Below, piece after piece: positions 432 through 57,619 of a DNA stretch of 64,000 bases. The notes below the pieces were generated by a model that was not told the origin of the DNA, did not search any database, and worked only from the letters and a program-made list of their open reading frames with translations. Every line of letters begins with the position of its first letter. Within the stretch, counting starts at the first letter, position 1. A program made the position numbers and the translations under genes. The stretch lies in NCBI RefSeq assembly GCF_013315695.1, contig NZ_CP054353.1; one strand, given 5' to 3'. The DNA is from Escherichia coli (GTDB lineage Bacteria > Pseudomonadota > Gammaproteobacteria > Enterobacterales > Enterobacteriaceae).

Positions 432-1901
432 TTACATCATTACGACGTCAAACTGCTCCTGGTTATAGAGCGGTTCAATTTGTACTTTAACCTGTTTGCC
501 AACGAAAATTTCCACTTCCGCCAGCGAGTGTGACTCTTCGCCTTTCAAGGCTTCGGCTACTGCCGGAGAAGCATAGACCAGGAAACGGTCGGAGTCGTAA
601 GCATGGTGGACACGAACAATCTCGCGCATGATTTCATAGCATACCGTTTCCACGGTTTTCACCGTTCCGCGACCGTGGCAGGTTGGGCATTCGTTACACA
701 GTACGTGCTCAATGCTTTCGCGGGTGCGTTTACGCGTCATCTCCACCAGCCCCAGCGCCGAAAAACCATTAACGCTGGTTTTCACCCGATCTTTGCTCAA
801 CGCCTGCTCCAGCGAGTGCAGCACGCGGCGGCGGTGATCTTCATTATTCATATCGATGAAATCAATAATGATAATCCCGCCCAGATTACGCAACCGTAAC
901 TGGCGAGCGATAGCCTGCGTCGCTTCAATATTGGTATTGAAAATGGTGTCGTCCAGATTGCGATGACCGACAAACGCCCCGGTATTGATGTCCACGGTGG
1001 TCATCGCCTCGGTCTGGTCGATAATCAGATAGCCACCGGATTTCAGTTCTACTTTGCGTTCCAGCGCCCGCTGGATTTCGTTTTCGACATCAAAGAGATC
1101 GAAAATCGGCTGGCGTCCGGTGTAATGCTCCAGCTTGCTGGTCATCTCGGGAATGTACTCCGAGGTAAACTCCAGCAATGCTTCGTAAGTCAGGCGTGAG
1201 TCAACGCGAATGCGGTCGAGTTCGGCGTCGGCGAAATCACGCAGAACACGCTGCGCCAGCGCCAGTTCGCCGTACAGCTGATAACGGGTCTGTGGGCGCT
1301 TTTTACGCTCCATAACTTTGGTCCAGACGCGTTTCAGATAAGCGGCATCGGAGGCCAGTTCAGCCTCGCCAACCCCTTCCGCTGCGGTACGGATGATAAA
1401 CCCGCCCTGCTCGTCGCAATACTCTGCGACCACTTTTTTCAGGCGTTCACGTTCTGATTCGCTTTCAATTCGTTGGGAAACCCCAACGTGAGAAGCCCCT
1501 GGCATAAATACCAGATAGCGAGAAGGCAGCGTGATATCGGTGGTCAGGCGCGCACCCTTAGTGCCAAGCGGATCTTTCACCACCTGCACCATCAGATCTT
1601 GCCCCTGACGGACCAGCTCCGAGATGTCGCGCACCGTGAATTGCTTTTGTTCTTCACCCGCCACACATTCGGTGTGCGGCATGATGTCAGATGCATGAAG
1701 AAACGCGGCTTTATCCAGCCCAATATCTACAAAAGCCGCCTGCATACCCGGAAGTACACGACTTACACGACCCTTGTAGATATTGCCTACTATTCCGCGT
1801 CGCGCCTCACGTTCAATATGAATTTCCTGCAGAATACCGCCATCAATATACGCCACTCGCGTTTCCGAAGGCGTTACGTTTACTAACAATTCAGCCGTCA
1901 T
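432..1901 (-). CDS. rng: Ribonuclease G
   Basis: ORF-track protein 432..1919 contains [22 protein letters not shown]..., the remembered RNase G N-terminus; start placed at that Met (489 aa) rather than the upstream in-frame Met. Confidence 0.93.
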
Positions 1902-2492: not shown

Positions 2493-4084
<1,592 letters not shown>

Positions 4085-12172: not shown

Positions 12173-12206
12173 CAACGCCGGGCCTGTTAACGCTGCCCGG
12201 CGTTTT
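12173..12206. terminator. Bidirectional intrinsic terminator shared by accC (+) and the convergent island gene (-)
   Basis: GC-rich inverted repeat cgccgggc ... gcccggcg followed by ttttta on the plus strand; sits between two convergent stop codons (12127 and 12219). Confidence 0.6.
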
Positions 12207-12218
12207 TATTGCCGTTAG

Positions 12219-13265
12219 CTAACGGTAGCTTGCAATTTCCGCTTTCAACGCGCTAATTTCAGCATCGCCATCAACAATTCCCAGCTCAAAGCAGTATGTC
12301 TTTGTTTCCCCTGGCTCTATAAAGGGCAGACGCCCCTGCGCTCGTTCTTTATCACGACCGTCAGGAAAACTATTGCTGACCTCCAGCCCCATAACATATT
12401 CACCCGCGCCTAAATTTTTCCAGTGGATAAAGTTGGGTAGCTGCATGGTGTCGAATTTCTCGTAAATTCCCCACCCCAGTTCGGCGTTCACCAGCGCAAC
12501 TTTACTCATCCCCTGACTGTCGCTATTCAACGTGAGATAGTAAACCTGCTCGTCAAAACCGGGCTGTGGGGTACAAATCTCCAGATGACTGGTTAACCCT
12601 TCCGCCGCATGCGGGGTTCGTGGCGTTACGCTTTTAGCCGACAGCAAGATTTCTGCCTGTGGCGATAATAAAGGCCAGCCGTAATTAAAGTGATAAAGAA
12701 TTTGCAGCGGCTGGCGGGTGAAACCATGATTAGTCACCTTGTCTTCAATGCGCAGCACATTTTCGCCATAACGGCAGCGAATGGTCCTTTCCAGCGTCAG
12801 ATTTTCACCGAACAATCGTGTTTCCCGTACTTTGCCATTGATGACAAATTCAATGCCGTCGTCGGTCCGTTCTGTGCGATACCCCACCTCTTCTGCTGGA
12901 GTCGCAGCCAAACGCCCGTGTAACCCCAGCGTTTCTCCGTTATCCTCACAGGGCGTGCCAATGTAGCTAAGTCCGCAGGTAGTCAGTAACCCCGCGTAGA
13001 AGCTACGTAAAAACCCGTTGCCCTGAGACTCAAAAAAAGCGGGGGCGACAATGCCGTTGGGGGTGATAAAAGAGAGCGCAGTATCCTTGTAGCTGGCCCA
13101 TGCAATATCCAGCGCGCGATCTTTTACCACCGTAAATGCCAGTCCCGCACCAGTACGGACATCAAACGCTTCTGTCCCCTTTGCTCTGCCACTACGTAAC
13201 TCATAGTGTTTAATTCCGGCAACCTGCGAGAGATCGCCAATCCACGACCAAATTTCGTTTTTCAT
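12219..13265 (-). CDS. Island protein, 348 aa; possibly aldose-1-epimerase (mutarotase)-like, assignment tentative
   Basis: Complete ORF whose stop/start overlaps the start of the downstream kinase gene (13262..13265), i.e. operon-coupled. No signal peptide or transmembrane segment seen. Family call is impression only. Confidence 0.65.
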   Translation of the reverse strand: MKNEIWSWIGDLSQVAGIKHYELRSGRAKGTEAFDVRTGAGLAFTVVKDRALDIAWASYKDTALSFITPNGIVAPAFFESQGNGFLRSFYAGLLTTCGLSYIGTPCEDNGETLGLHGRLAATPAEEVGYRTERTDDGIEFVINGKVRETRLFGENLTLERTIRCRYGENVLRIEDKVTNHGFTRQPLQILYHFNYGWPLLSPQAEILLSAKSVTPRTPHAAEGLTSHLEICTPQPGFDEQVYYLTLNSDSQGMSKVALVNAELGWGIYEKFDTMQLPNFIHWKNLGAGEYVMGLEVSNSFPDGRDKERAQGRLPFIEPGETKTYCFELGIVDGDAEISALKAEIASYR

Positions 13266-14224
13266 TGTGCTGCTTCCCGAATGGACATGTCATGGCGCTG
13301 GATGAACGCTTCGATTTCCGCAAGGCGAGACGTTCCCTCCATTGGGCCACGTCGGGTTACCGCCAGTGCACCGCAGGCGTTGGCATATTGTAATGCCCGA
13401 TGGGCGTCAAACCCTAGCTGGCGGCAGGCAATCCACGCGCCACCAAAACAGTCTCCCGCACCGGTCGGGTCAACTTCTTCCACCGGATAGCTCTCAACAT
13501 GAAACTGCTCATTCGCGGAGTAGTAACTGGCACCTTGATTGCCGCGCTTCACAATCACCTCTTTAACACCTTCTTCAAGAAAACCAGCGATTGCACGCTC
13601 CGGTGTCGAGTGTGGCGACAAGAGCAACACTTCTCCCTCGCTGGGCATATAGATATCTGTTAACTCAAGAACAAAGTGGAGGGCGTCACGCATTTCTGGA
13701 ATATCGAGCATCTCTTTCCGAATATTAGGGTCAAAAGAAATAACGCCACCATTCTCTTTTACAATGGTTACCGCTTTCTTTACTGCGTCTACCATATGGA
13801 ATGAAAACAGGGATGAACCCATAATATGAAAATGGGTACAGTCCTTCAGAATATTTTCATCAACATGCTGCGCCGATAATTTACCGCAAGCGGCATTCTT
13901 GATATTAAAAATAAAATCGCGATCGCCAGAGTTATGATAAGTAACAAAGGCACTCCCGGTAGCTTCCAGAGGTAAGACTGAAATCCCCCTGATATCCACA
14001 CCGTCAGCAGCCAGACGATGTATATTAATATCACCAAAGCCATCATTCCCCACACAGCTAATGATGCCGCACGGAACGCCAAGACGTGTCACCTGGTCGA
14101 TAAAAATAGCGGGTGCGCCACTGGGATAAGGGCCGTTCCAGATACCTGGTTGATCAAATGGCTGGCCGATTTTACTCGCCATAATTTCAACCAGAATTTC
14201 TCCAATTGTGAAGACCTTACTCAT
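13262..14224 (-). CDS. pfkB/ribokinase-family sugar (phosphate) kinase, copy 1
   Basis: 320-aa translation with the family's C-terminal signature DPTGAGDCFGGA and an N-terminal Gly-rich substrate region. Confidence 0.85.
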   Translation of the reverse strand: MSKVFTIGEILVEIMASKIGQPFDQPGIWNGPYPSGAPAIFIDQVTRLGVPCGIISCVGNDGFGDINIHRLAADGVDIRGISVLPLEATGSAFVTYHNSGDRDFIFNIKNAACGKLSAQHVDENILKDCTHFHIMGSSLFSFHMVDAVKKAVTIVKENGGVISFDPNIRKEMLDIPEMRDALHFVLELTDIYMPSEGEVLLLSPHSTPERAIAGFLEEGVKEVIVKRGNQGASYYSANEQFHVESYPVEEVDPTGAGDCFGGAWIACRQLGFDAHRALQYANACGALAVTRRGPMEGTSRLAEIEAFIQRHDMSIREAAQ

Positions 14225-14245
14225 ATGATTAATTCCTTGAAATGA

Positions 14246-15235
14246 TTAGCTGCGTTTTCTTTTATTTCTTACGTCAAAATAAACGGCTACAAGAATGACT
14301 AATCCTTTAACCACCATCTGATAGAAATAGGGAACGTTCATTAAGTTCATGCCATTATTAATAACGCCGATGGTTAATGCCCCGATTACCGTCCCCACCA
14401 CGGTTCCATAGCCGCCGTTCAGGCTGGTGCCTCCCAGTACAGCCGCAGCAATAGCATCCAGTTCGTAGCTCAACGCGGAATTCGGTTGCCCGGAATAGAG
14501 GCGTGAGGCGAGGATCATCCCGCTGATACCTGCCAGCACAGCTGTAATCATAAAGACTTTTATTTTCAAGCGGGTGACATTTATCCCTGAATAAACTGCC
14601 GCTTCTTTATTACCACCAGTGATATAAATCTTTCGTCCAAAGGTTGTTTTAGTAAGAATGAAATGGTTAATCAGCAATAAGATAATTAATATCCAGATTG
14701 GAATAGGTATATAGAGAAATTCTCCATTCCCCAGCGCCAGAAAGGCATCATCTTTAATCATGATGGGCATACCATCGGTCACTATATAAGCGATACCACG
14801 GAAGATCCCCATAGTAGCAACGGTGACAATAAACGACGGGATCCCCGCTATAGCCGTCAAGCCACCATTTATCATCCCCAGAGCCAGGGCTGCAATAATG
14901 GATAATGGGACCAATAAAATAAATGGAATTCCCCATGAAGCCCCAAGCGCAGCAAATGTGCCAATCAATGCAATGGTTGAACCAACCGATAAATCAATAT
15001 CGCCAAGCAAAAGTACGTAAGTCATTCCATAGGCGGTAATTGCAATTATCGAAACCTGAAGAATAATATTAGTAATGTTATTGGCGGTAAAAAAACTGTC
15101 ATTAATAAAACTGAACAGAATGATTAACACCACCATTCCACTGAGGATACCGCCATATTGCCTGAAGACTTTTTTAAAATTATTTGCAATGGGAATTTCC
15201 GAAGGTTTCGGACTGGCAAGAGTTTTCTCTGTCAT
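14246..15235 (-). CDS. ABC sugar transporter permease (RbsC-like)
   Basis: 329-aa highly hydrophobic protein with multiple predicted membrane spans; immediately downstream of, and contiguous with, the ATPase gene. Confidence 0.85.
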   Translation of the reverse strand: MTEKTLASPKPSEIPIANNFKKVFRQYGGILSGMVVLIILFSFINDSFFTANNITNIILQVSIIAITAYGMTYVLLLGDIDLSVGSTIALIGTFAALGASWGIPFILLVPLSIIAALALGMINGGLTAIAGIPSFIVTVATMGIFRGIAYIVTDGMPIMIKDDAFLALGNGEFLYIPIPIWILIILLLINHFILTKTTFGRKIYITGGNKEAAVYSGINVTRLKIKVFMITAVLAGISGMILASRLYSGQPNSALSYELDAIAAAVLGGTSLNGGYGTVVGTVIGALTIGVINNGMNLMNVPYFYQMVVKGLVILVAVYFDVRNKRKRS

Positions 15236-16735
15236 TTAACGTACTCCTGTTGCAGCGGTCATTACCTGTGTCTGCGTTAAATTTTCACATGAATAAATAT
15301 CGGCAATCGTTTTATTACGCATTACCACCAGACGATCGCTAAGTGCCATGACTTCTGGCAGTTCAGAGGACACCAGAATAATTGCTGTCCCTGCCGCAGC
15401 CAGTTGACGTATCACGTTATAGATTTCAAATTTTGCGCCGACATCCACTCCGCGCGTTGGCTCATCGAGCAATAAAATACGCGGAGTTTTCTCCAGCCAC
15501 TTCGATAACACGATTTTCTGTTGATTACCGCCGCTCAGTGCTCCCACTGCCTGATGTACAGAACTCACTTTAGTGTTCATTCTGGCAATTGATTGCAGCG
15601 TCTTCGCCTCTTCTTGTCGGTGATTGATAAGTCCTATCCGCGAAGCGTTATATTGAAACGCCACATGGTGCGTGTTCATATTGACGTCGTGCATCAGCAC
15701 TAACCCTTCTTCCTTGCGGTTTTCGGTCACAAAAGCAATGCCATGATCAATAGCCTGTTTGGGATTAGCGATCCTGACTTCCTTACCATCAATCAACACA
15801 GTCCCGTGATACGAAACGAGGCCAAATAGCGCCTTCATCACATCGGAACGCCCGGCCCCCACCAGGCCAAAAAATCCGAGGACTTCCCCCGGACGCACAG
15901 CGAAACTGACCTCTTTAAAAAGCGAAGGATGGGAAAGGTTTTTTACTTCCAGTTTTGCAGGAACATTTTCATCCGGCTTTTCCCCAAGACGTGCTGGCCA
16001 AATATTTTTCATTTCCCGACCAACCATTTGGGCAATCAAATGCTGGATATCACTGTTTTTCTTTTCATGCGTAGCGATATACTCACCGTCGCGGATCACC
16101 GAAATATCATCTGAAATCCGCATAATTTCATCCATGCGATGAGAGATATAAATAACCGCACAACCTCGCTGCTTTAATTTCTCAATAATGTTAAACAGAA
16201 TCTCTGCTTCATTATCACTTAGCGAAGATGTCGGTTCATCCATAATCACGACATCTGCTGCATAGCTTAAGGCTTTGGCAATTTCTACCAGTTGCCTATG
16301 TGCCATCGACATATTGCCGACCATTTCCAGCGGATCCAGTGGGATGCCCAGTTCCGCGAGGAGATTCTGGCAATCTGCGAGCATTTTTTTATCGTTAATA
16401 ATGCCAAAACGTCGCGGTTCATTATTGGCATAAATATTTTCCGCCACGGTCATATTATTACTCAGGCTCAGTTCCTGAAAAATAATCGCAATCCCTAACT
16501 GGCGAGAATGCTGCGGATTATTAATGGTGATGGTTTCACCACGTAGTGTTATCGTTCCCTGGGTTGGCGGATAAACACCGGCGAGTATTTTCATTAATGT
16601 CGATTTACCGGCACCATTCTCGCCTAATAAAGTATGCACCCGCCCTTTACGTAAAGAGAGGGTAATATCTTTTAATGCCTGAACATGACCAAATGTCTTC
16701 GCAATATGCGAAACATCAAGAATAACATCCGTCAT
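15236..16735 (-). CDS. ABC sugar transporter ATP-binding protein with duplicated nucleotide-binding domains (RbsA-like)
   Basis: 499-aa translation with two Walker A motifs (GENGAGKST; GLVGAGRS) and two ABC signature motifs (LSGGNQQK-type), typical of monosaccharide importer ATPases. Confidence 0.9.
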   Translation of the reverse strand: MTDVILDVSHIAKTFGHVQALKDITLSLRKGRVHTLLGENGAGKSTLMKILAGVYPPTQGTITLRGETITINNPQHSRQLGIAIIFQELSLSNNMTVAENIYANNEPRRFGIINDKKMLADCQNLLAELGIPLDPLEMVGNMSMAHRQLVEIAKALSYAADVVIMDEPTSSLSDNEAEILFNIIEKLKQRGCAVIYISHRMDEIMRISDDISVIRDGEYIATHEKKNSDIQHLIAQMVGREMKNIWPARLGEKPDENVPAKLEVKNLSHPSLFKEVSFAVRPGEVLGFFGLVGAGRSDVMKALFGLVSYHGTVLIDGKEVRIANPKQAIDHGIAFVTENRKEEGLVLMHDVNMNTHHVAFQYNASRIGLINHRQEEAKTLQSIARMNTKVSSVHQAVGALSGGNQQKIVLSKWLEKTPRILLLDEPTRGVDVGAKFEIYNVIRQLAAAGTAIILVSSELPEVMALSDRLVVMRNKTIADIYSCENLTQTQVMTAATGVR

Positions 16736-16795
16736 AATGACCTCGGTGTCACAACAAAACGTCGATAACGTTTTGTTGTGAAATGAAGATGTTTA

Positions 16796-17686
16796 TCATT
16801 TACCTGTATAAACGCCGGGTTGTACCGGGATCATTTTTTCTACCGGTTTACCATTGAGGTGATCAACAGCGGCATCAATGGCTTTAGCACCCATTTGATC
16901 GGGATATTGCCGAATCACGGCCGCAAACGTTTTTTCACTGTCAACGGCATCACGCGCTTCTTTCATGCCGTCAAAACCAATGATTTTGATGTTGTCGTTA
17001 TGCGCAGATTTCGCTGCGATAACCGCTGCCAGCGCCGCATCATCACCAAAGCCAAACAGACCATTCAGGTTGGCATTTGCCTGCATAATGTTTTGCGCAG
17101 TCGTTAACGCTTCAGCCCGCGTAATACCAGGCTGTTCAGCAACAATTTTAATATCCGGTGTATCGCTTAACCCTTTCTTAAAACCATCAACGCGCGCAAC
17201 CACCGATTGTAATGCCGGATAAGAAATAATGGCTACAGTACCTTTACCATTCAAAAGTTTGCCCATTAACTTGCCTGCTTCAACGCCTCCCGCGTAGTTA
17301 TCGGTCGCAACATGCGATACGACCGGAACGCCTTCCGCAGCGACGTCGACGGTGATAACGGGAATACCGGCCTTATCGGCTTTAATTATCGCCGCCTGGA
17401 CGCCTTTCGAATCGACCGGAGAGATAATAATGGCATCCACTTTTTTAGTAATAAAATCCTCAACATCAGAAAGTTGTTTGTTTAAATCCTGATTGGCAAT
17501 AGAGACACTTAAATTGACATTGTCTTTTTTTGCCTCTTCTTTCATGGCATTCGCAAGATCAATATAGAAAGGATGTTGCTGTGTTAATAATGACGCACCA
17601 ATTTTATACTCTTTTGCCAACGAGCTTTGCGAGAACAATGCCAGGCTCACCAACATAGCTGAACCAAGTAATTTAATATTTTTCAT
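16796..17686 (-). CDS. Periplasmic sugar-binding protein (RbsB-like)
   Basis: 296 aa with N-terminal signal peptide (MKNIKLLGSAMLVSLALFSQSSLA) and periplasmic-binding-protein-like sequence. Confidence 0.85.
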   Translation of the reverse strand: MKNIKLLGSAMLVSLALFSQSSLAKEYKIGASLLTQQHPFYIDLANAMKEEAKKDNVNLSVSIANQDLNKQLSDVEDFITKKVDAIIISPVDSKGVQAAIIKADKAGIPVITVDVAAEGVPVVSHVATDNYAGGVEAGKLMGKLLNGKGTVAIISYPALQSVVARVDGFKKGLSDTPDIKIVAEQPGITRAEALTTAQNIMQANANLNGLFGFGDDAALAAVIAAKSAHNDNIKIIGFDGMKEARDAVDSEKTFAAVIRQYPDQMGAKAIDAAVDHLNGKPVEKMIPVQPGVYTGK

Positions 17687-17721
17687 AAATAATCCTCATT
17701 GTTTTTGTAGGGTACAACATC

Positions 17722-18603
<882 letters not shown>

Positions 18604-18697
18604 TTACAAAATGAAGAAAGAGAATCTTCACTTTCATTTTGAAAGCAAACTAGCACAGCAAAAGCGGCAAAAAGCGTGATGCATGTCGAATATCATC

Positions 18698-18722
18698 AAA
18701 ATAACTTACAAAAAATAACTTA
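18698..18722. repeat. Tandem direct repeat aaaataactta (two copies, 14-bp register) in the divergent island control region
   Basis: Exact 11-bp repeat at 18698..18708 and 18712..18722, between the divergent aldolase operon and the DeoR-family regulator gene. Confidence 0.35.
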
Positions 18723-18917
18723 ATTTGTTTTTTACTTTGTAAGTGAAACCAATGACACCTCTGCATAAATATGAATATATTCATTTATTTTTCAATGTAT
18801 TAAGCTATTTTCGTTGCGATTTTTGACCCATGATTTTCTTTTCGAATTGTCGATATTATTGAAGGGTAACTTTCAAAGAAAAATACAAGGGGCTATAGTG
18901 TTACGCATTAAAGGCCA

Positions 18918-19748
18918 ATGAAGAGTGTTAACGTGCCGAGAAAATCGTCTAACCTACTGAAACGCAGATTAAAAATTGCAGAAATTGTTGCCGCCCAGGG
19001 TGAAATCAAAGTTGATGACTTATCTGCGCAACTTGGTGTCTCTAGCGTGACGATCCGCGGCGATCTCAGTTATCTGGAGCAACAGGGATATTTAAAGCGA
19101 TCATTTGGCGGTGCTATTGCGACACCACTCTCCTCTGAACCAGAAGCGATACAACCGATCGCGCCGTTGTCTCTGGCACAACAAATGGAAATAGCACGAC
19201 ATTGCGCACGGTTAATTCGGGATCGTGACACGCTATTTCTTGGACATGGGACAATCTGCCGTAAGATCATTCCCTTGCTCAGCGAAGTGAAAAAACTGCG
19301 TCTGATCACCAACGATCCCGAACATGCGCTGCTGGCAAATCAGTTTATTGATGGCGAAATAATACTGGCTGGCAGTGAAATGCTGCGCCCCGATACCGCA
19401 CTGGCCGGAAAACCTCTCGAACAGGCACTTCAGCATTTCACCATTACACATAGCATTCTGGAAATCAGCCATCTGGATGCTGATGGTACTTTAAATATCA
19501 ACGTTCCCAGACTTGCCGCTGCCTGGCAGCTCTGTTTCGATAATGCCCAGAATAAGACGGTTATCGTTGCCGCCGATCCTGCGCCATCAACGGCTGCTAT
19601 CGGGCATTTGCATCAAGCAGAAAATGTGATCGTCAGCCGCAGCATTAACGAACAATATCAGCAACAATTGCAGTCGGCTGATTTCGTTATCCTTTATACC
19701 AGTAATGAGTGCTTTACCTGGTCCAATCGCGAAAGGCTTCAGGAATGA
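18918..19748 (+). CDS. DeoR-family transcriptional regulator
   Basis: N-terminal helix-turn-helix pattern ...IAEIVAAQGEIKVDDLSAQLGVSSVTIRGDLSYLEQQGYLKRSFGGA..., as in GlpR/DeoR proteins; transcribed divergently from the transporter/aldolase operon. Confidence 0.8.
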   Translation: MKSVNVPRKSSNLLKRRLKIAEIVAAQGEIKVDDLSAQLGVSSVTIRGDLSYLEQQGYLKRSFGGAIATPLSSEPEAIQPIAPLSLAQQMEIARHCARLIRDRDTLFLGHGTICRKIIPLLSEVKKLRLITNDPEHALLANQFIDGEIILAGSEMLRPDTALAGKPLEQALQHFTITHSILEISHLDADGTLNINVPRLAAAWQLCFDNAQNKTVIVAADPAPSTAAIGHLHQAENVIVSRSINEQYQQQLQSADFVILYTSNECFTWSNRERLQE

Positions 19749-19758
19749 GAGGGGTTTT

Positions 19759-20715
19759 GTGACAATAACTATCTGCGCTATGGGCGAATTGCTGGCCGAG
19801 TTTTTGTCCCGCAACCCACATCAAAAATTCACTCAGCCTGGGGAGTTTATCGGGCCATTTCCCAGCGGTGCACCAGCAATTTTTGCTGCTCAGGTGGCAA
19901 AACTGTCCCATCGGGCCATCTTCTTCGGATGTGTTGGTAATGATGATTTTGGCCGACTCATTATAGAGCGTCTCCGTCATGAAGGTGTCATTACCGATGG
20001 GATTCACGTTATGAACAATGCCGTCACAGGTACGGCGTTCGTGAGTTATCAAAATCCCCAGCAGCGGGATTTCGTCTTTAATATCCCTAACAGCGCCTGC
20101 GGTTTGTTTACTGCCGAGCACATTGATAAGGATCTGCTTAAACAGTGTAACCATCTGCATATTGTGGGCTCATCGTTGTTCTCATTTCGCATGATCGATG
20201 TCATGCGTAAAGCAATAACGACGATCAAATCGGCTGGCGGAACCGTTTCTTTCGATCCCAATATTCGCAAAGAGATGCTGAGCATTCCTGAAATGGCGCA
20301 GGCCCTCGATTATTTGATTGAATATACGGATATTTTTATCCCCAGCGAAAGCGAACTCCCTTTCTTCGCGCGTCACAAAAATCTGTCAGAAGAACAGATT
20401 GTTAGCGATCTTCTCCACGGCGGCGTAAAACATGTGGCGATAAAACGCGCCCAGCGTGGGGCCAGCTATTACAAGCTTAAAAACGGTACATTACACGCCC
20501 AGCATGTTACAGGCCACGATATCGAAATTATCGATCCAACGGGTGCAGGCGACTGCTTTGGCGCAACGTTTATCACTCTTTTCTTATCCGGTTTCCCGGC
20601 ACACAAGGCGCTGCAATATGCAAATGCCAGCGGCGCGCTCGCCGTAATGCAGCAAGGTCCGATGGAAGGGATATCCTCACTGACTGACATTGAAGACTTT
20701 TTGCAGCAGCACTGA
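19759..20715 (+). CDS. pfkB/ribokinase-family sugar (phosphate) kinase, copy 2
   Basis: Paralogue of the 13262..14224 kinase (shared blocks PSGAPAIF, GSSLFSF, SFDPNIRKEML, DPTGAGDCFG, LQYANA.GALAV). Start set at GTG 19759, just after the regulator stop and a gagagggg stretch; the ORF-track start at 19705 overlaps the regulator. Confidence 0.85.
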   Translation: MTITICAMGELLAEFLSRNPHQKFTQPGEFIGPFPSGAPAIFAAQVAKLSHRAIFFGCVGNDDFGRLIIERLRHEGVITDGIHVMNNAVTGTAFVSYQNPQQRDFVFNIPNSACGLFTAEHIDKDLLKQCNHLHIVGSSLFSFRMIDVMRKAITTIKSAGGTVSFDPNIRKEMLSIPEMAQALDYLIEYTDIFIPSESELPFFARHKNLSEEQIVSDLLHGGVKHVAIKRAQRGASYYKLKNGTLHAQHVTGHDIEIIDPTGAGDCFGATFITLFLSGFPAHKALQYANASGALAVMQQGPMEGISSLTDIEDFLQQH

Positions 20716-31999: not shown

Positions 32000-32069
32000 G
32001 TTGGAGTCATTACCCGTTAATAAGAGAGTTAACTTATTAAGCGTTAGCGTTTATTACTGAGGTAACACC

Positions 32070-32291
32070 ATGAAAAGATTAATTCCTGTGGCATTGCTCA
32101 CCGCATTGCTGGCGGGCTGTGCTCACGATTCGCCCTGCGTTCCGGTTTATGATGATCAGGGGCGACTGGTTCACACCAATACCTGTATGAAAGGCACGAC
32201 TCAGGATAACTGGGAAACGGCTGGGGCTATTGCTGGCGGGGCAGCAGCTGTTGCTGGCCTGACGATGGGGATCATCGCTCTGTCGAAATAA
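32070..32291 (+). CDS. yhdV: Small lipoprotein YhdV
   Basis: 73-aa translation MKRLIPVALLTALLAGCAHDS... (lipobox LAGC) with a Gly/Ala-rich C-terminal hydrophobic segment. Confidence 0.85.
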   Translation: MKRLIPVALLTALLAGCAHDSPCVPVYDDQGRLVHTNTCMKGTTQDNWETAGAIAGGAAAVAGLTMGIIALSK

Positions 32292-32295
32292 CTGA

Positions 32296-32320
32296 ACAGA
32301 GCGCGGAGTACCGCGCTCTG
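32296..32320 (+). terminator. Candidate terminator hairpin after yhdV
   Basis: cagagcgcgg agta ccgcgctctg inverted repeat just after the yhdV stop; the following T-tract is weak (tttaa). Confidence 0.4.
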
Positions 32321-32721
32321 TTTAACGATACAGTATCTCACCATAAGATAAAATATTGCTATATTCTGCTGGCTAATTCCCTGCTGATTTAGCATGTTAT
32401 ATCGCGTTATTTCGCTGCTTTCGAAATAACGCATCAATTTAATTTTCACACTTCCCACCAGAATTATACTCACGCTAACAATCATTATTCTGCTTAGTAA
32501 AAAACGCGTAAATATTTTGCGCCAAAATGTGGCGCATGTTTCATTTTCGCACCATTGCGGGGCGCTGTTTTTATTATTTCCTGTCTACACTCAGCTTATT
32601 GCGACGCGAAATCGTGCGCAAAAACTGGCACTACTTTTGCTTATAAGAGGATGGCCACAGACAGGTAAAAGACGTTTCCCAAATGTCCTATAACGATAAT
32701 TTTCGCCTCACAGGAAGCATT

Positions 32722-33747: not shown

Positions 33748-33814
33748 GTCGGTGTGAGGTAACGAGCGTCGCTACGGCGGCGCTCTCTTCAGCGTTATGC
33801 TTTCCGAGGTTTCT

Positions 33815-34996: not shown

Positions 34997-35005
34997 GGAG
35001 TCATG

Positions 35006-36109
35006 ATGACAAAAGTATTGCTGTCTCATCCCCCGCGCCCGGCGAGCCATAACTCAAGCCGCGCGATGGTGTGGGTGCGAAAAAATCTGTTCTCCAGCTG
35101 GAGCAATAGCCTGCTGACTATTGGCTGCATATGGTTGATGTGGGAACTGATCCCACCGTTGCTGAACTGGGCATTTTTGCAGGCTAACTGGGTTGGCTCA
35201 ACGCGTGCCGACTGCACAAAAGCCGGTGCCTGTTGGGTCTTCATCCACGAACGATTTGGTCAGTTTATGTATGGGCTTTACCCACACGACCAACGCTGGC
35301 GAATTAACCTCGCATTACTGATTGGGCTTATGTCGATCGCACCAATGTTCTGGAAAATACTCCCGCATCGCGGTCGCTATATTGCGGTATGGGCGGTGAT
35401 TTACCCACTGATTGTCTGGTGGCTGATGTATGGCGGGTTTCTTGGTCTTGAGCGGGTTGAAACCCGGCAATGGGGCGGGCTGACGCTAACTTTAATTATT
35501 GCATCAGTTGGGATTGCGGGGGCGCTGCCGTGGGGGATCTTACTGGCGTTAGGTCGCCGCTCCCATATGCCGATTGTGCGTATCTTATCGGTCATTTTTA
35601 TCGAGTTCTGGCGCGGTGTACCGCTGATTACCGTTCTGTTTATGTCTTCGGTCATGCTGCCGTTGTTTATGGCAGAAGGCACCAGTATCGACAAATTGAT
35701 CCGCGCGCTGGTTGGCGTGATCCTGTTTCAGTCAGCATATGTTGCGGAAGTCGTGCGAGGCGGATTACAGGCGCTGCCTAAAGGGCAATATGAAGCGGCA
35801 GAGTCGCTGGCGTTGGGTTACTGGAAAACCCAGGGGCTGGTTATTCTGCCACAGGCGTTGAAGCTGGTGATTCCTGGGCTGGTAAATACCATCATCGCAC
35901 TTTTCAAAGATACCAGCCTGGTGATCATCATCGGGTTGTTCGATCTTTTCAGTAGCGTTCAGCAGGCAACCGTTGATCCCGCCTGGTTGGGTATGTCGAC
36001 GGAAGGGTATGTTTTCGCCGCACTGATCTACTGGATCTTCTGTTTCAGCATGTCACGTTATAGCCAACATCTGGAAAAACGTTTTAACACCGGGCGTACA
36101 CCGCATTGA
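35006..36109 (+). CDS. yhdY: ABC amino-acid transporter permease
   Basis: Translation [32 protein letters not shown]..., polytopic membrane protein. Confidence 0.9.
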
Positions 36110-36116
36110 GGACACT

Positions 36117-36875
36117 ATGAGCCAAATTTTACTGCAACCTGCTAACGCGATGATTACGCTGGAAAACGTCAATAAATGGTATGGGCAATTCCATGTTTTG
36201 AAAAATATAAATTTAACCGTGCAACCGGGCGAACGGATCGTTCTGTGTGGCCCTTCTGGTTCCGGTAAATCGACAACCATTCGTTGTATTAATCATCTGG
36301 AAGAACACCAACAGGGACGGATCGTGGTAGATGGCATCGAGCTTAACGAAGATATTCGCAATATTGAGCGCGTCAGGCAGGAAGTGGGAATGGTCTTTCA
36401 GCATTTCAATCTCTTCCCTCATCTGACCGTTCTACAGAACTGTACCCTGGCACCGATTTGGGTACGCAAGATGCCTAAGAAAGAGGCTGAAGATCTGGCG
36501 TTGCATTACCTTGAGCGGGTGAGAATTGCCGAACATGCCCAGAAGTTTCCCGGACAGATTTCTGGTGGTCAGCAGCAACGCGTTGCCATAGCACGTTCAC
36601 TTTGTATGAAACCAAAGATCATGCTGTTTGACGAACCTACGTCTGCGCTCGATCCGGAGATGGTGAAAGAAGTGCTGGATACAATGATTGGGCTGGCGCA
36701 GTCAGGTATGACAATGTTGTGCGTAACGCACGAGATGGGGTTTGCGCGAACCGTCGCTGACAGGGTGATTTTTATGGATCGTGGGGAGATAGTGGAACAA
36801 GCTGCACCGGATGAGTTTTTTGCGCATCCTAAGTCAGAGCGTACGAGGGCATTTTTATCGCAGGTGATCCATTAA
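36117..36875 (+). CDS. yhdZ: ABC amino-acid transporter ATP-binding protein
   Basis: 252 aa with Walker [10 protein letters not shown], signature ISGGQQQR and Walker [12 protein letters not shown]. Confidence 0.93.
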
Positions 36876-36889
36876 TTGAATGTTAGTTC

Positions 36890-36932
36890 GAAAAGCAAAA
36901 AGGCCATCCTTTCGGATGGCCTTTCGCTTGAT
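36890..36932 (-). terminator. rrnD operon terminator (also positioned to terminate yhdZ on the other strand)
   Basis: ggccatcc tttc ggatggcc perfect hairpin flanked by A/T runs, immediately downstream of the distal 5S gene. Confidence 0.7.
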
Positions 36933-36935
36933 TTG

Positions 36936-37055
36936 ATGTCTGGCAGTTCCCTACTCTCGCATGGGGAGACCCCACACTACCATCGGCGCTACGGCGTTTC
37001 ACTTCTGAGTTCGGCATGGGGTCAGGTGGGACCACCGCGCTACTGCCGCCAGACA
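36936..37055 (-). rRNA. rrfF: 5S ribosomal RNA, distal copy of rrnD
   Basis: 120-nt reverse-complement match to E. coli 5S rRNA (…ccatgccgaactcagaagtgaaacgccgtagcgccgatggtagtgtggggtctccccatgcgagagtagggaactgccag…). Confidence 0.9.
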
Positions 37056-37092
37056 AATTCTTTTCTAATCTGCCGAACTTTAACCTAAAAAG

Positions 37093-37168
37093 TGGTGCTG
37101 ATACCCAGAGTCGAACTGGGGACCTCACCCTTACCAAGGGTGCGCTCTACCAACTGAGCCATATCAGC
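37093..37168 (-). tRNA. thrV: tRNA-Thr
   Basis: Reverse complement reads gctgatatggctcagttggtagagcgcacccttggtaagggtgaggtccccagttcgactctgggtatcagcacca (anticodon GGT, CCA end encoded). Confidence 0.9.
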
Positions 37169-37180
37169 ACGCTAAATTTG

Positions 37181-37300
37181 ATGCCTGGCAGTTCCCTACT
37201 CTCGCATGGGGAGACCCCACACTACCATCGGCGCTACGGCGTTTCACTTCTGAGTTCGGCATGGGGTCAGGTGGGACCACCGCGCTAAGGCCGCCAGGCA
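37181..37300 (-). rRNA. rrfD: 5S ribosomal RNA, proximal copy of rrnD
   Basis: Second 120-nt 5S copy; reverse complement begins tgcctggcggcc and ends ctgccaggcat. Confidence 0.92.
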
Positions 37301-37394
37301 AATTCTGTTTATCAGACCACTTCTGCGTTCTGATTTAATCTGTTATCAAGCTTACTTATCGATGTCTCTTCCGCCAAAACATCTTCGGCGTTGT

Positions 37395-40298
<2,904 letters not shown>

Positions 40299-40481
40299 TC
40301 ACAACCCGAAGATGTTTCTTTCGACTCATCATCGTGTTGCGAAAATTTGAGAGACTCACGAACAACTTTCGTTGTTCAGTGTTTCAATTTTCAGCTTGAT
40401 CCAGATTTTTAAAGAGCAAAACTTCGCAGTGAACCTTTGCAGGTACACTCTGAAGTATTTTTTATTTAATCACTACAGAGA

Positions 40482-40557
40482 TGGTGGAGCTATGCGGGAT
40501 CGAACCGCAGACCTCCTGCGTGCAAAGCAGGCGCTCTCCCAGCTGAGCTATAGCCCC
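40482..40557 (-). tRNA. alaU: tRNA-Ala (UGC) in the 16S-23S spacer
   Basis: Reverse complement reads ggggctatagctcagctgggagagcgcctgctttgcacgcaggaggtctgcggttcgatcccgcatagctccacca. Confidence 0.92.
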
Positions 40558-40599
40558 ATAACATGTAGTTAAAACCTCTTCAAATTTGCGGTGCAAATT

Positions 40600-40676
<77 letters not shown>

Positions 40677-40744
40677 GTAGAGGTTTTACTGCTCATTTTC
40701 ATCAGACAATCTGTGTGAGCACTTCAAAGTACGCTTCTTTAAGG

Positions 40745-42286
<1,542 letters not shown>

Positions 42287-48728: not shown

Positions 48729-50018
48729 ATGAAAAAACAACGTAATTTACGTAGCATGGCGGCCCAGGCCGTTGAACAAGTCGTCGAGCAAGGGCAATCA
48801 TTAAGCAACATTCTGCCACCGCTCCAGCAAAAAGTTTCCGATAAAGACAAAGCACTTCTTCAAGAGTTGTGCTTTGGCGTACTGCGTACGCTTTCACAGT
48901 TAGACTGGCTGATTAATAAGTTAATGGCCCGTCCGATGACCGGCAAACAGCGCACTGTGCATTACCTGATTATGGTTGGTTTGTATCAACTGCTTTATAC
49001 CCGCATTCCACCTCATGCCGCGCTGGCTGAAACGGTTGAAGGCGCAGTTGCAATTAAGCGCCCGCAACTTAAGGGATTGATTAACGGTGTATTACGTCAG
49101 TTCCAGCGTCAGCAAGATGAGTTATTAGCCGAGTTTAATGCCAGTGATGCACGTTATCTGCATCCTTCCTGGTTGCTGAAGCGTCTGCAAAAGGCGTATC
49201 CCGAGCAGTGGCAATCCATCGTCGAAGCCAATAACCAGCGTCCGCCAATGTGGCTGCGCGTTAATCGTACGCATCATTCCCGCGACAGCTGGCTTGCATT
49301 GCTGGATGAAGCAGGAATGAAAGGTTTCCCGCATGCGGATTACCCTGATGCTGTACAGCTGGAAACACCTGCACCTGTTCATGCGCTACCCGGTTTTGAA
49401 GAAGGATGGGTTACCGTTCAGGATGCTTCAGCACAAGGTTGCATGACCTGGCTTGCTCCACAAAATGGTGAACACATTCTGGATCTTTGCGCTGCCCCCG
49501 GCGGTAAAACAACGCATATTCTTGAGGTTGCTCCAGAGGCGCAAGTTCTGGCGGTCGATATTGATGAGCAGCGCCTCTCTCGCGTTTACGACAATTTAAA
49601 ACGCCTTGGTATGAAGGCAACCGTGAAACAAGGTGATGGCCGTTACCCTTCCCAATGGTGTGGCGAGCAACAGTTTGATCGCATTTTATTAGATGCGCCT
49701 TGTTCAGCAACCGGTGTGATTCGTCGCCATCCGGATATTAAATGGTTACGTCGCGATCGCGATATCCCGGAACTCGCGCAATTGCAGTCTGAAATTCTCG
49801 ACGCCATTTGGCCGCATTTAAAATCCGGTGGAACCCTGGTCTATGCCACCTGTTCAGTGTTACCGGAAGAGAATAGCCTGCAGATTAAAGCCTTTTTGCA
49901 ACGTACCGCTGATGCCGAACTTTGCGAAACAGGAACACCAGAGCAACCGGGTAAACAAAATCTGCCTGGTGCCGAAGAGGGCGACGGCTTCTTTTACGCT
50001 AAGCTAATCAAAAAGTGA
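48729..50018 (+). CDS. rsmB: 16S rRNA m5C967 methyltransferase
   Basis: Translation [27 protein letters not shown]... (429 aa) with NusB-like N-domain and SAM methyltransferase domain ([20 protein letters not shown]). Confidence 0.93.
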
Positions 50019-50039
50019 TGAGATAACGGGTCGCGACTG

Positions 50040-51416
50040 ATGAAAATTATCATTCTGGGTGCCGGCCAGGTTGGCGGCACACTGGCGGAAAACCTGGTTG
50101 GCGAGAACAACGATATCACTGTTGTCGATACCAACGGTGAGCGTCTGCGGACCTTGCAGGATAAATTTGACCTGCGAGTCGTGCAGGGACATGGCTCTCA
50201 TCCACGCGTATTGCGGGAGGCAGGTGCCGACGACGCCGATATGCTGGTTGCTGTAACCAGTTCAGATGAAACCAATATGGTTGCCTGCCAGGTAGCCTAC
50301 TCACTTTTCAACACCCCTAATCGCATCGCTCGTATCCGCTCACCAGACTACGTGCGCGATGCCGATAAGCTATTTCATTCAGATGCTGTACCGATTGATC
50401 ATCTGATCGCACCAGAGCAGTTGGTTATCGATAATATTTACCGACTGATTGAGTATCCCGGCGCATTGCAGGTGGTAAACTTCGCTGAGGGTAAAGTCAG
50501 CCTGGCTGTGGTTAAAGCCTATTACGGCGGCCCGCTGATTGGTAATGCACTTTCGACCATGCGCGAACATATGCCACATATCGATACTCGTGTGGCAGCA
50601 ATTTTCCGCCATGATCGCCCCATTCGTCCGCAAGGTTCGACCATTGTTGAAGCTGGTGATGAAGTGTTCTTTATTGCCGCTTCACAGCATATCCGCGCGG
50701 TGATGAGTGAATTACAGCGACTGGAAAAACCGTATAAGCGGATCATGCTGGTTGGTGGTGGTAATATCGGTGCAGGGCTGGCGCGTCGTCTGGAAAAAGA
50801 TTACAGCGTCAAACTCATCGAACGTAATCAGCAGCGCGCTGCCGAACTGGCGGAAAAGTTGCAGAATACGATCGTCTTTTTTGGTGATGCGTCGGATCAA
50901 GAACTGCTGGCCGAAGAACATATCGATCAAGTTGATCTGTTTATTGCTGTCACCAACGATGACGAAGCCAATATCATGTCCGCCATGCTTGCCAAACGTA
51001 TGGGTGCGAAAAAGGTGATGGTATTGATCCAGCGTCGCGCTTATGTGGATCTGGTTCAGGGGAGCGTGATCGATATTGCGATTTCACCGCAACAAGCAAC
51101 TATTTCTGCGTTGCTTAGCCATGTGCGAAAAGCTGATATTGTTGGTGTTTCCTCACTGCGCCGCGGCGTAGCAGAAGCTATTGAAGCCGTTGCTCACGGT
51201 GATGAAAGCACCTCACGCGTTGTCGGCAGAGTCATTGATGAAATCAAGCTACCGCCAGGAACGATTATTGGAGCGGTGGTACGTGGAAACGACGTGATGA
51301 TTGCCAATGACAATCTGCGCATTGAGCAAGGCGATCACGTAATTATGTTCCTCACAGATAAAAAGTTTATTACCGACGTCGAAAGACTCTTCCAGCCAAG
51401 TCCTTTCTTCTTGTAA
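50040..51416 (+). CDS. trkA: Potassium uptake regulatory protein TrkA (tandem NAD-binding domains)
   Basis: 458 aa with two Rossmann motifs ([14 protein letters not shown]; [14 protein letters not shown]). Confidence 0.95.
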
Positions 51417-51429
51417 TTAATAAGGCGTC

Positions 51430-51460
51430 TAATGACGCCTTATTATTTCCCTTTGATTAT
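51430..51460 (+). terminator. Candidate intrinsic terminator after trkA
   Basis: aataaggcgtc taat gacgccttatt perfect hairpin followed by atttcc. Confidence 0.45.
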
Positions 51461-51545
51461 CAGGGATTAATTAAATTCACTCCTGGCAGGAAAATAGCTT
51501 AACATTTGTTAGACTTATGATTGTCGGCTTCATAGGGAGAATAAC

Positions 51546-51956
51546 ATGAGCATTATTAAAGAATTTCGCGAATTTGCGATGCGCGGGAACGTGGTGGATT
51601 TGGCGGTGGGTGTCATTATCGGTGCGGCATTCGGGAAGATTGTATCTTCACTGGTTGCCGATATCATTATGCCACCTCTGGGGTTATTAATTGGCGGGAT
51701 CGATTTCAAACAGTTTGCTGTCACGCTACGCGATGCGCAGGGGGATATCCCTGCTGTTGTGATGCATTACGGTGTCTTCATTCAAAACGTCTTTGATTTT
51801 CTGATTGTAGCCTTTGCCATCTTTATGGCGATTAAGCTAATCAACAAACTGAATCGGAAAAAAGAAGAACCAGCAGCCGCGCCTGCACCAACTAAAGAAG
51901 AAGTATTACTGACAGAAATTCGTGATTTGCTGAAAGAGCAGAATAACCGCTCTTAA
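51546..51956 (+). CDS. mscL: Large-conductance mechanosensitive channel
   Basis: 136-aa translation [59 protein letters not shown]... Confidence 0.97.
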
Positions 51957-52171
51957 CAAGCGCCTGAAAGCAGAAGGCCAGTGGTAAAAAAGTGATTTAC
52001 TTTCTTGCCACTGGCCTCCCAGTTCCCCCGATTGCCATGTTTTCCTTTTCGCATGTAACTGCCTTTCCCTTTCTTATTTCTCTCTACGCGCTGTCGGAAT
52101 AAGGGATCATGTAGTAATGCTTCTATCGCATTATCCTTTATCTGCCCTTTAGTATGCTGATATCGGCTCAT
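51953..52171 (-). CDS. arfA: Alternative ribosome-rescue factor A
   Basis: 72-aa translation [72 protein letters not shown]; convergent with mscL with a 4-bp overlap. Confidence 0.9.
51975..52017 (-). promoter_or_regulatory. Hairpin inside the arfA 3' coding region (the RNase III-processed stem that makes arfA mRNA non-stop)
   Basis: aggccagtgg ... ccactggcct 10-bp inverted repeat with a 23-nt loop, inside the last codons of arfA. Confidence 0.6.
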
Positions 52172-52226
52172 AAAAACTCCAATTGGTTATTTAACGGCGC
52201 GAGTGTAATCCTGCCAGTGTAAAAAA

Positions 52227-52652
52227 TCAACAGCCACTCTTAACGCCACTCGCCCCTTGTTCAAGAGCTTCAAGAATCGAGCAATAAACACTGCTATGGG
52301 CGGTCCCACAACAGGCATCGTTAAGGCGTTGGAGGGAACGCTGCATACTCTGCAACTCGGCTATCCGTGCTTCGACTTCCTGCAATCTTTCCTGCACAAT
52401 GCCTTTTGACTCCTGACAGGTATGGTGTTCAGGATCGATACGGATCGACAGCAACTCGCGGATCGACTCCAGACTGAAACCAAGTTGTCTGGCATGGCGG
52501 ATAAATTTCAATCGCTGGAGATCGCTTTCGGTATACAGGCGAAACCCACCTTCGGTGCGTACTTCATGCTCCATCATCTGCTGCTTTTCGTAATAACGAA
52601 TCGTGTCGGGTGTTACTTCCGCCATTTTTGCCAGCTCACCAATGCGATACAT
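52227..52652 (-). CDS. zntR: MerR-family Zn(II)-responsive regulator
   Basis: 141-aa translation MYRIGELAKMAEVTPDTIRYYEKQQMMEHEVRTEGGFRLYTESDLQRLKFIRHARQLGFSLESIRELL... with C-terminal Cys/His metal ligands. Confidence 0.93.
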   Translation of the reverse strand: MYRIGELAKMAEVTPDTIRYYEKQQMMEHEVRTEGGFRLYTESDLQRLKFIRHARQLGFSLESIRELLSIRIDPEHHTCQESKGIVQERLQEVEARIAELQSMQRSLQRLNDACCGTAHSSVYCSILEALEQGASGVKSGC

Positions 52653-52662
52653 ACATACTCCA

Positions 52663-53031
52663 CTAGTTATCGTTGATTTTGTTCAACAACTTGTCAGCAT
52701 AATCGCCGCGTAAAAAATCGGTACTCAATCCAGCTTGTCGCAGCTTCAATTCCAGTAATGACAATCGACGACTAACCTCTTGATATTGCGGATCATCATG
52801 ACGGATACCTTTGAGAATATCCAGAAGCTGTATTGCTTCCCTCCTATGCTCAAGTTCTGGCGGTAAGCAACCAGCGTTCTTCAGCAAGCGATACCCCGCA
52901 CGTAATTCCGGTGGCACATGAGAATCATCATCCAGAATCAATGGCTCGCCACTTCCCGGAAGATTATCAAACTCACCTTTGGATTGTGCCTCAGTAATAT
53001 GACGCTCTGCCCACTGGTCAAGTAACCACAT
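52663..53031 (-). CDS. yhdN: DUF1992-family protein YhdN
   Basis: 122-aa translation MWLLDQWAERHITEAQSKGEFDNLPGSGEPLILDDD... Confidence 0.85.
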   Translation of the reverse strand: MWLLDQWAERHITEAQSKGEFDNLPGSGEPLILDDDSHVPPELRAGYRLLKNAGCLPPELEHRREAIQLLDILKGIRHDDPQYQEVSRRLSLLELKLRQAGLSTDFLRGDYADKLLNKINDN

Positions 53032-53093
53032 AAATACTCCAGGGGATGAACAAAAAGAGTACAGCTATTGTAGATAAGTGGGGATACTACGGG

Positions 53094-53124
53094 TATAAAA
53101 AAACCCGCCGGGGCGGGTTTTTTT
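53094..53124 (-). terminator. Alpha-operon terminator downstream of rplQ
   Basis: aaaaaaacccgcc gggg cgggttttttt, a symmetric hairpin with A/T runs on both sides, 14 bp after the rplQ stop. Confidence 0.65.
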
Positions 53125-53137
53125 ACGTTGCTTCAGA

Positions 53138-53545
<408 letters not shown>

Positions 53546-53561
53546 TTAACCTGTGATCCGG

Positions 53562-54551
53562 TTACTCGTCAGCGATGCTTGCCGGTGGCCAGTTTTCCAG
53601 GCGCATGCCCAGAGACAGTCCACGGGAAGCCAGCACGTCTTTAATCTCAGTAAGAGATTTTTTACCAAGGTTAGGCGTTTTAAGGAGCTCAACCTCGGTA
53701 CGCTGTACCAGATCACCGATATAGTGGATAGCTTCTGCTTTAAGGCAGTTAGCAGAGCGGACAGTCAATTCCAGATCGTCAACAGGGCGCAGCAGGATCG
53801 GATCGAACTCTGGTTTCTCTTCTTTCACTTCAGGCTGACGTACATCACGTAAGTCAACGAAAGCTTCCAGTTGTTCAGCCAGAATGGTTGCCGCACGACG
53901 AATCGCCTCTTCAGGATCGATTGTGCCGTTGGTTTCCATTTCGATGACCAGCTTGTCCAGGTCGGTACGCTGTTCTACACGCGCTGCTTCAACATTGTAG
54001 GCAATACGCTCCACAGGGCTGTAGCATGCGTCGACCAGCAGACGGCCGATTGGGCGCTCATCTTCTTCCGAATGAATTCGGGTAGAAGCCGGCACATAAC
54101 CACGACCGCGCTGAACTTTGATACGCATGCTAATAGACGCGTTCTCATCGGTCAGGTGGCAGATCACGTGCTGCGGCTTGACGATTTCGACATCACCGTC
54201 GTGGGTGATATCGGCTGCAGTCACAGGGCCAATGCCAGATTTATTCAAGGTAAGAATAACTTCATCTTTGCCCTGAACTCTCACCGCCAGCCCTTTCAGG
54301 TTGAGCAGGATTTCCAGGATATCTTCCTGAACGCCTTCTTTGGTGCTGTACTCATGTAGTACACCATCAATCTCAACCTCGGTCACCGCGCAACCCGGCA
54401 TCGATGAGAGCAGAATACGGCGCAGTGCGTTACCCAGAGTATGGCCAAAGCCACGCTCTAAAGGCTCAAGGGTCACCTTGGCGTGCGTCGAACTCACTTG
54501 CTCGATATCAACCAGGCGCGGTTTTAGAAACTCTGTCACAGAACCCTGCAT
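53562..54551 (-). CDS. rpoA: RNA polymerase alpha subunit
   Basis: 329-aa translation [53 protein letters not shown]... Confidence 0.98.

Positions 54552-55636: not shown

Positions 55637-57619
<1,983 letters not shown>

Follow-up and report, generated by a model that had tools for sequence, protein, structure and literature searches.

The convergent mscL-arfA gene pair described here is very probably (probability about 0.93) the E. coli arfA locus with its built-in self-truncation device, a 26-pair hairpin in the distal part of the arfA coding sequence that would give rise to a message without a stop codon. This hairpin device is real, conserved and already known. Its mechanism has been published since 2011 and its antisense link to mscL since 2023, in keeping with the original prediction, which did not present it as novel. 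Gene identities, hairpin statistics, conservation, nucleotide-level selection and near-identity to the K-12 element were computed here, and RNase III cleavage, tmRNA tagging and the antisense effect are taken from the literature. From the near-identity to K-12, we infer that the published cleavage, tagging and antisense steps would proceed in the same way in this strain; no feature of the sequence speaks against the self-truncation explanation. In what follows, the window is the whole stretch of 64,000 nucleotides that was analysed. The genes and signals at the locus are as follows.

51546..51956, plus strand: mscL coding sequence, 136 aa (ORF list; Pfam PF01741, 160.8 bits; RefSeq), convergent on arfA
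51953..52171, minus strand: arfA coding sequence, 72 codons plus stop, encoding alternative ribosome-rescue factor A (ORF list, Pfam PF03889, RefSeq)
51953..51956, both strands: 4-bp overlap of the mscL and arfA coding sequences, a TTAA palindrome with both stop codons inside
52177..52180, minus strand: putative arfA Shine-Dalgarno sequence GGAG, 5 nt before the ATG
52202..52230, minus strand: candidate arfA sigma-70 promoter, TTGATT-17 nt-TACACT, picked by eye and overlapping the zntR stop codon
52227..52652, minus strand: zntR, adjoining arfA and encoding a MerR-type regulator (Pfam)

The identity of arfA is well established. Its product matches Pfam PF03889 with 88.1 bits (cut-off 25.5) over residues 4-45, the N-terminal, ribosome- and RF2-binding region, and is identical at 71 of 72 residues to the ArfA of PDB 5H5U and K-12, K31R being the sole difference. 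Residue 18 is an alanine that is invariant in the ArfA alignment; according to Morra et al. 2023 (PMC10070815), the A18T substitution abolishes rescue activity. The convergent overlap of 4 bp that had been claimed for the two genes is exact: within ...TCTTAAC..., the mscL stop codon TAA occupies 51954-51956 on the plus strand, and the TTA at 51953-51955 reads as the TAA of arfA on the minus strand. The RefSeq record of an identical strain gives the same genes by name and the same 4-bp overlap. The candidate promoter matches at 8 of 12 positions and lies under the threshold of the promoter scan, which reported nothing at that threshold upstream of arfA. A 36-codon plus-strand ORF antisense to arfA (51992..52102), located in the mscL 3′ UTR and beyond, is without support and was rejected as spurious.

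The local gene order is trkA-mscL-arfA-zntR-yhdN-rplQ, where yhdN encodes a DJC28_CD/DUF1992 protein by Pfam, and the whole window corresponds to the usual E. coli rng-mre-acc-fis-acrEF-rrnD-def/fmt-trkA-mscL-arfA-zntR-alpha/spc/S10 operon region; ssrA, smpB and rnc lie outside it. A 1.3-kb stretch is 100% identical in several E. coli chromosomes and is matched in 5425 of the 5426 complete E. coli genomes. Elsewhere in the window, a sugar-utilisation cluster between yhdT and accC (about 12200..20700) comprises two sugar kinases, a DeoR regulator, a tagatose-bisphosphate-type aldolase, an ABC transporter and an aldose 1-epimerase; as only 1419 of 5426 complete E. coli genomes contain at least 80% of it, the cluster is accessory DNA. 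The coordinate offset relative to strain MS 21-1 shifts by 247 bases between this cluster and the 16S gene (20962 to 40745), which points to an indel relative to that otherwise near-identical strain. An rrnD-type operon occupies 36938..42286 on the minus strand (16S, tRNA-Ile, tRNA-Ala, 23S, 5S, tRNA-Thr and a second 5S), with a StyR-44 match at 40306..40414 in the spacer beside the 23S gene, and an Alpha_RBS element is found at 55961..56072.

The regulatory element itself lies near the end of arfA.

51966..52026, minus strand: arfA regulatory stem-loop (predicted fold), arfA nt 146-206, codons 49-69 of 72, 26 pairs
52008..52017, minus strand: 5′ arm of the core stem, RNA AGGCCAGUGG, in columns that are invariant across 80 Enterobacteriaceae sequences
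51975..51984, minus strand: 3′ arm of the core stem, RNA CCACUGGCCU; position 51977 is C here and T in K-12, a synonymous change

A 10-bp stem at 51975..52017, within the last arfA codons, had been claimed from the sequence. Its coordinates are exact, since AGGCCAGTGG (51975-51984) and CCACTGGCCT (52008-52017) are perfect reverse complements, and its place within the last codons agrees with the span of codons 49-69 out of 72; however, the 10 bp are only the core of a helix of 26 pairs. A repeat finder returned 19-nt arms (51975-51993 and 51999-52017) that are 89% complementary and separated by a 5-nt spacer, and the RNA fold of the arfA strand extends from 52026 to 51966 in three segments of 4, 14 and 8 pairs with single mismatches between them, closed by a 5-nt loop at 51994..51998. 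Folding of the minus strand, the check put forward with the original prediction, indicates that the stem is thermodynamically favoured: the minimum free energy (MFE) is -34.0 kcal/mol, where shuffled sequences average -19.4 (sd 3.15; z = -4.63), no shuffle out of 200 reaches the same stability, and the hairpin is retained in both the MFE and the centroid structures of a 271-nt context. It ranks as the second most stable of 18,266 windows of 71 nt taken over both strands of the 64 kb (mean -15.7, sd 4.9), a rank that holds despite the presence of the rRNA operon within the window. Other very stable 71-nt folds, of -33 to -34.4 kcal/mol and hence similar in strength, were seen at 3025..3095 (plus strand), 1541..1611 (minus strand) and 32257..32362 (both strands).

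One could suppose that the inverted repeat arose by chance or is some generic REP-like repeat devoid of any specific function, as 64 kb should, by our own arithmetic, contain by chance a few bare perfect inverted repeats of 10 bp confined to 80 nt. The full 26-pair hairpin, with the stability statistics given above, is not expected by chance in a sequence of this length. Nor is it a dispersed repeat, because it is present in a single copy per genome: among complete E. coli genomes it was found once in 5425 of 5426, the 61-nt sequence being identical in 2753 of them and 95-99% identical in 2672 others. Together with its conservation and its frozen synonymous sites in 80 genomes from many Enterobacteriaceae genera, this leaves a chance or REP-like origin virtually no probability, and we regard it as already refuted. 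No Rfam family matched over the hairpin, either at gathering thresholds in the whole window or at E <= 1 in 50000-54000; Rfam has no family for the arfA hairpin, and the absence of a match is no evidence against the element.

The hairpin corresponds closely to the one described in K-12. According to Morra et al. 2023 (PMC10070815), citing Garza-Sanchez et al. 2011 and Chadani et al. 2011, the regulatory stem-loop extends from nt 146 to nt 206 of arfA, and comparison with these published coordinates, which had also been suggested as a check, gives an identical interval when the folded helix is counted from the arfA ATG at 52171. The same study reports RNase III products spanning nt 166-189 and nt 190 to the stop codon, i.e., cuts after nt 165 and nt 189, which can be mapped onto the window.

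52006..52007, minus strand: predicted 5′ RNase III cut, between arfA nt 165 and 166 at the conserved C.A mismatch, mapped from the published fragments
51982..51983, minus strand: predicted 3′ RNase III cut, between arfA nt 189 and 190, mapped from the published boundaries
52007..52171, minus strand: predicted coding part of the active truncated ArfA, codons 1-55, ending ...NWEASG, from the mapped cut after nt 165

The sequence at both mapped cut sites is identical to that of K-12. Textbook RNase III products carry a 2-nt overhang; by our own count from the fold and the published cuts, the mapped positions would give a 3-nt 3′ overhang that includes the mismatch. This C.A mismatch (52007/51985, nt 165/187) lies between the 14-bp and 8-bp helices, and it is conserved in 78 of 80 Enterobacteriaceae sequences, the two exceptions, a Huaxiibacter locus (L078) and a Lelliottia locus (L080), being paired as C-G. 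It sits exactly on the 5′ RNase III cut as given in the published account. Cleavage at this site would end the mRNA exactly after codon 55. This end is consistent with a review in which active ArfA is described as missing its last 17-18 residues, and also with ribosome structures, which were obtained with ArfA constructs of 55-60 residues.

K-12 arfA (yhdL, b4550) thus shares with the window the gene, the chromosomal position, the hairpin interval and the cut-site sequences. Over 271 aligned nucleotides there are five differing positions, of which one falls in the hairpin, where 60 of 61 nt are identical: nt 195 (51977) is C instead of T, a synonymous change that turns a G.U into a G-C pair and strengthens that pair relative to K-12. 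The hairpin sequence of the window is carried by about half of the complete E. coli genomes. Besides the change at 51977, the window differs from K-12 arfA by K31R and three other substitutions in the coding sequence. With the same nt 146-206 interval and K-12-identical cut sites, the claimed match to the established RNase III and non-stop arfA mechanism appears sound.

Altogether, these observations can be placed in the following model. Transcription from a promoter at the zntR end would produce an mRNA with the 26-bp hairpin at nt 146-206, upstream of the arfA stop codon. RNase III would cut the helix after nt 165 and nt 189, and some transcripts may instead terminate at the hairpin; by either route, the message would lack a stop codon and end just past codon 55. 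Ribosomes reaching the end of this mRNA would stall and, when tmRNA-SmpB is present, the nascent ArfA would be tagged and degraded. Reviews describe the same course, from cleavage by RNase III or early termination at the stem, through a non-stop mRNA, to tagging of its product by tmRNA-SmpB and degradation. If trans-translation is overloaded or missing, ArfA of 55 residues would build up untagged, recruit RF2 and allow stalled ribosomes to be released. The rare full-length ArfA would carry a hydrophobic tail and be unstable; reviews give a half-life of 1.6 min for the full-length protein, an instability due to this tail. Lastly, the released 3′ fragment (nt 166-219) would lower the stability of the mscL mRNA.

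The RNase III account on which the original prediction relied is supported, yet RNase III is not the sole route, because reviews describe the same stem-loop as also able to cause premature transcription termination, which likewise yields a non-stop mRNA. This raises the question of whether the hairpin acts mainly as an intrinsic terminator within the arfA ORF, with RNase III cleavage being secondary. Consistent with such a role, the 14-bp stem is followed by the U-rich UUCUGCUUUC, in which the T positions are invariant or at least 90% conserved, and clear U-runs follow the hairpins of several distant arfA genes (L087, L088 and L089). However, the U-tract is broken up and takes part in the pairing of the lower stem, the hairpin was called on neither strand by the terminator scan, and in vitro cleavage of the E. 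coli transcript by RNase III has been demonstrated and reproduced, as reported in Morra et al. 2023 (PMC10070815). A predominantly terminating hairpin is therefore possible but holds a minority share of our confidence; in any case, it would lead to the same regulation and amounts to a version of the main explanation, not a true alternative to it. The terminator scan called only a weak 5-bp stem, CGCUU...GAGCG, at 51948..51962 on the minus strand, across the overlapping stop codons; immediately downstream of it, antisense to the 3′ end of mscL, there is a hairpin of 8 bp. The 51948..51962 stem might mark the end of full-length arfA transcripts.

The hairpin is conserved irrespective of the encoded tail. 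Sampling one genome per species gave 80 Enterobacteriaceae loci; the genera include Escherichia, Citrobacter, Salmonella, Enterobacter, Klebsiella/Raoultella, Kluyvera, Buttiauxella, Leclercia and Kosakonia. Every locus has mscL converging on arfA, the mscL stop codon being 203-217 nt from the arfA start, and every locus folds the same hairpin, with energies of -27.7 to -45.5 kcal/mol. The arfA ORF varies from 68 to 93 codons, and the overlap of the two coding sequences from 0 to 65 bp; with the hairpin fixed and the overlap so variable, the 4-bp overlap is incidental and has no conserved role of its own. When the 80 sequences are aligned without gaps, standard pairs account for 91.6% of the cells, a share that drops to 42.8-63.8% if the partners are shifted by 1-3 columns. 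Covariation is seen at the pair that closes the loop (C-G in 46 sequences, U-A in 29 and U-G in 5). Covariation is otherwise modest, only 5 of the 26 pairs changing on both sides and 10 never varying, because the core stem is invariant in sequence.

The selection that maintains this stem can be read from codon positions. The entropy at third codon positions is 1.20 bits over codons 2-47, which encode the functional domain, and falls to 0.13 bits in the codons of the core stem; past the hairpin, it reaches about 1.5 bits at all three codon positions. Low entropy in the stem and high entropy in the tail argue for selection on the nucleotides of the stem, as RNA or DNA, rather than on the encoded tail, and nothing constrains the sequence of that tail. 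A T7-for-T6 allele in the 3′ arm of the upper stem (window 51986..51991), otherwise identical to the window, has an ORF of 88 codons overlapping mscL by 51 bp; two independent assemblies carry it, one an NCBI E. coli-type assembly (L083:601-867) and the other built from a read set (L084:601-867). This allele supports an unconstrained tail, although it may be a homopolymer sequencing error. Many database ArfA entries are 80-110 residues long, with differences confined to the tail. As for the genomic setting, one E. coli record includes a plasmid with a copy of the arfA hairpin/mscL segment, and an Enterobacter hormaechei ArfA is described as plasmid-borne in a database entry (P0074).

Owing to the convergence of the two genes, the 3′ fragment of arfA is perfectly complementary to the 3′ UTR of mscL.

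51957..52020, plus strand: mscL 3′ UTR, +1 to +64 per Morra et al. 2023, with the complementary hairpin inside
51953..52006, minus strand: equivalent of yrdG, 54 nt (nt 166-219), antisense to the mscL 3′ UTR, by K-12 annotation and alignment

In the K-12 reference record, the ncRNA yrdG (b4846), an 'arfA-derived small regulatory RNA', is annotated on the last 54 nt of arfA, and the corresponding segment of the window differs from it by one base. It had been stated that ORF-level annotation gives no hint of the device: this is the case for PGAP records but not for the K-12 reference, in which yrdG appears. According to Morra et al. 2023 (PMC10070815), the 3′ fragment cleaved from arfA serves as an antisense RNA in a K-12-type strain and makes the mscL mRNA shorter-lived; in vitro, RNase III also cleaves the mscL 3′ UTR. 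The earlier account of the hairpin, correct as to mechanism, had left out this antisense effect of the fragment on the mscL mRNA. The sRNA-mscL pair of Morra et al. 2023 shows the same convergence and the same 54-nt complementarity as the window, with no structural difference. In the window, the mscL stop codon ends at 51956, 10 nt from the hairpin base (51966). In that study, E. coli is grouped as 'proximal' rather than 'overlap', whereas the annotated coding sequences overlap by 4 bp in both K-12 and the window.

The arrangement leads one to ask whether the hairpin belongs to arfA at all, or is primarily a terminator or 3′-end stabiliser of mscL that falls inside arfA merely by convergence and plays no role there. 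The plus strand does fold strongly (19 pairs, -32.5 kcal/mol in a 101-nt window, z = -4.02); the published 3′ UTR (+1 to +64) stops at the base of the hairpin and is cleaved by RNase III in vitro, and the convergence with mscL at a nearly fixed distance is universal among the 80 loci. Several features nevertheless favour arfA. The sequence contains no U-tract 3′ of the hairpin on the mscL strand, and G.U pairs lengthen the helix on the arfA strand to 26 pairs, compared with 19. Published arfA mutants in which the stem is disrupted alter the behaviour of both arfA and mscL (Morra et al. 2023, PMC10070815), and plasmid-borne constructs in the literature imply a tmRNA-dependent control of ArfA away from mscL.

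Distant relatives bear on the same question. Distant ArfA representatives (62% identity or less) were drawn from an exhaustive profile search, with eight encoding contigs. One of these, L085, entered as a 50%-identity representative, was rejected as a distant homologue because it is an internally frameshifted Enterobacteriaceae arfA, which leaves seven intact genes. Six of the seven contain a strong in-ORF hairpin that starts at nt 135-157 and precedes the stop codon, with z values of -4.3 to -11.5 against mononucleotide shuffles. Neighbours could be identified for only four of these six, and in all four cases they are not mscL: adk, a D12 methyltransferase gene, a lipoprotein gene and, by eye, a tRNA-like sequence. 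Since genes in such different company retain a strong in-ORF hairpin at a matching position, the hairpin is a property of arfA, which in Enterobacteriaceae is also common to the mscL 3′ UTR. Dual use by arfA and mscL is likely, exclusive use by mscL is not, and a hairpin serving primarily mscL, with no role in arfA, is quite improbable.

These distant genes agree with Schaub et al. 2012, which, as cited in reviews, describes in-ORF hairpins or terminators in arfA homologues of other Proteobacteria. Like the Enterobacteriaceae genes, homologues of this kind have a strong stem-loop about 135-157 nt into the ORF, before the stop codon; they differ in having unrelated stem sequences, often clear U-tracts of the terminator type, and other neighbours, whereas the E. 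coli type has a long helix suited to RNase III and common to the mscL UTR. The seventh intact gene, in L092 (L092:901-1104), encodes a 67-aa homologue with a hydrophilic tail, adjoins a phage YunG-like gene and is without a strong in-ORF hairpin; this arfA may be unregulated or borne by a mobile element. In the rejected L085 (L085:901-1116; GCA_901420665.1, Enterobacteriaceae), the middle of arfA is out of frame and the hairpin is intact; no mscL was called between arfA and trkA, indicating either gene decay or a problem of assembly quality.

One aspect of the arfA hairpin goes beyond the published mechanism. The 11-nt cores of the two arms, GAGGCCAGUGG and CCACUGGCCUU, are nearly invariant in sequence over many Enterobacteriaceae genera, and the conservation of these cores and of the C.A mismatch exceeds the demands of base-pairing alone. 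It is plausible that a double-strand constraint is at work, in which the same DNA serves two transcripts, the arfA mRNA and the mscL 3′ UTR, each of which must fold and undergo processing: a G.U pair on one strand is an A.C mismatch on the other, so that compensatory evolution would be blocked. Taken together, the proposal that the core is held invariant by this constraint, or by further sequence-specific partners of the arfA-derived sRNA, is speculative and rather unlikely to be correct as it stands; neither idea was found stated in the arfA/mscL literature cited here.

The meaning of this locus is easily missed when only coding sequences are annotated. Such annotation presents a 72-codon protein that would hardly ever be produced in that form, and leaves an RNA element and an sRNA out of sight. 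The combination of frozen synonymous sites in a stem, a stop codon that wanders beyond it and natural frameshift alleles past the cut offers a clear signature by which other 'programmed non-stop' genes could be recognised.
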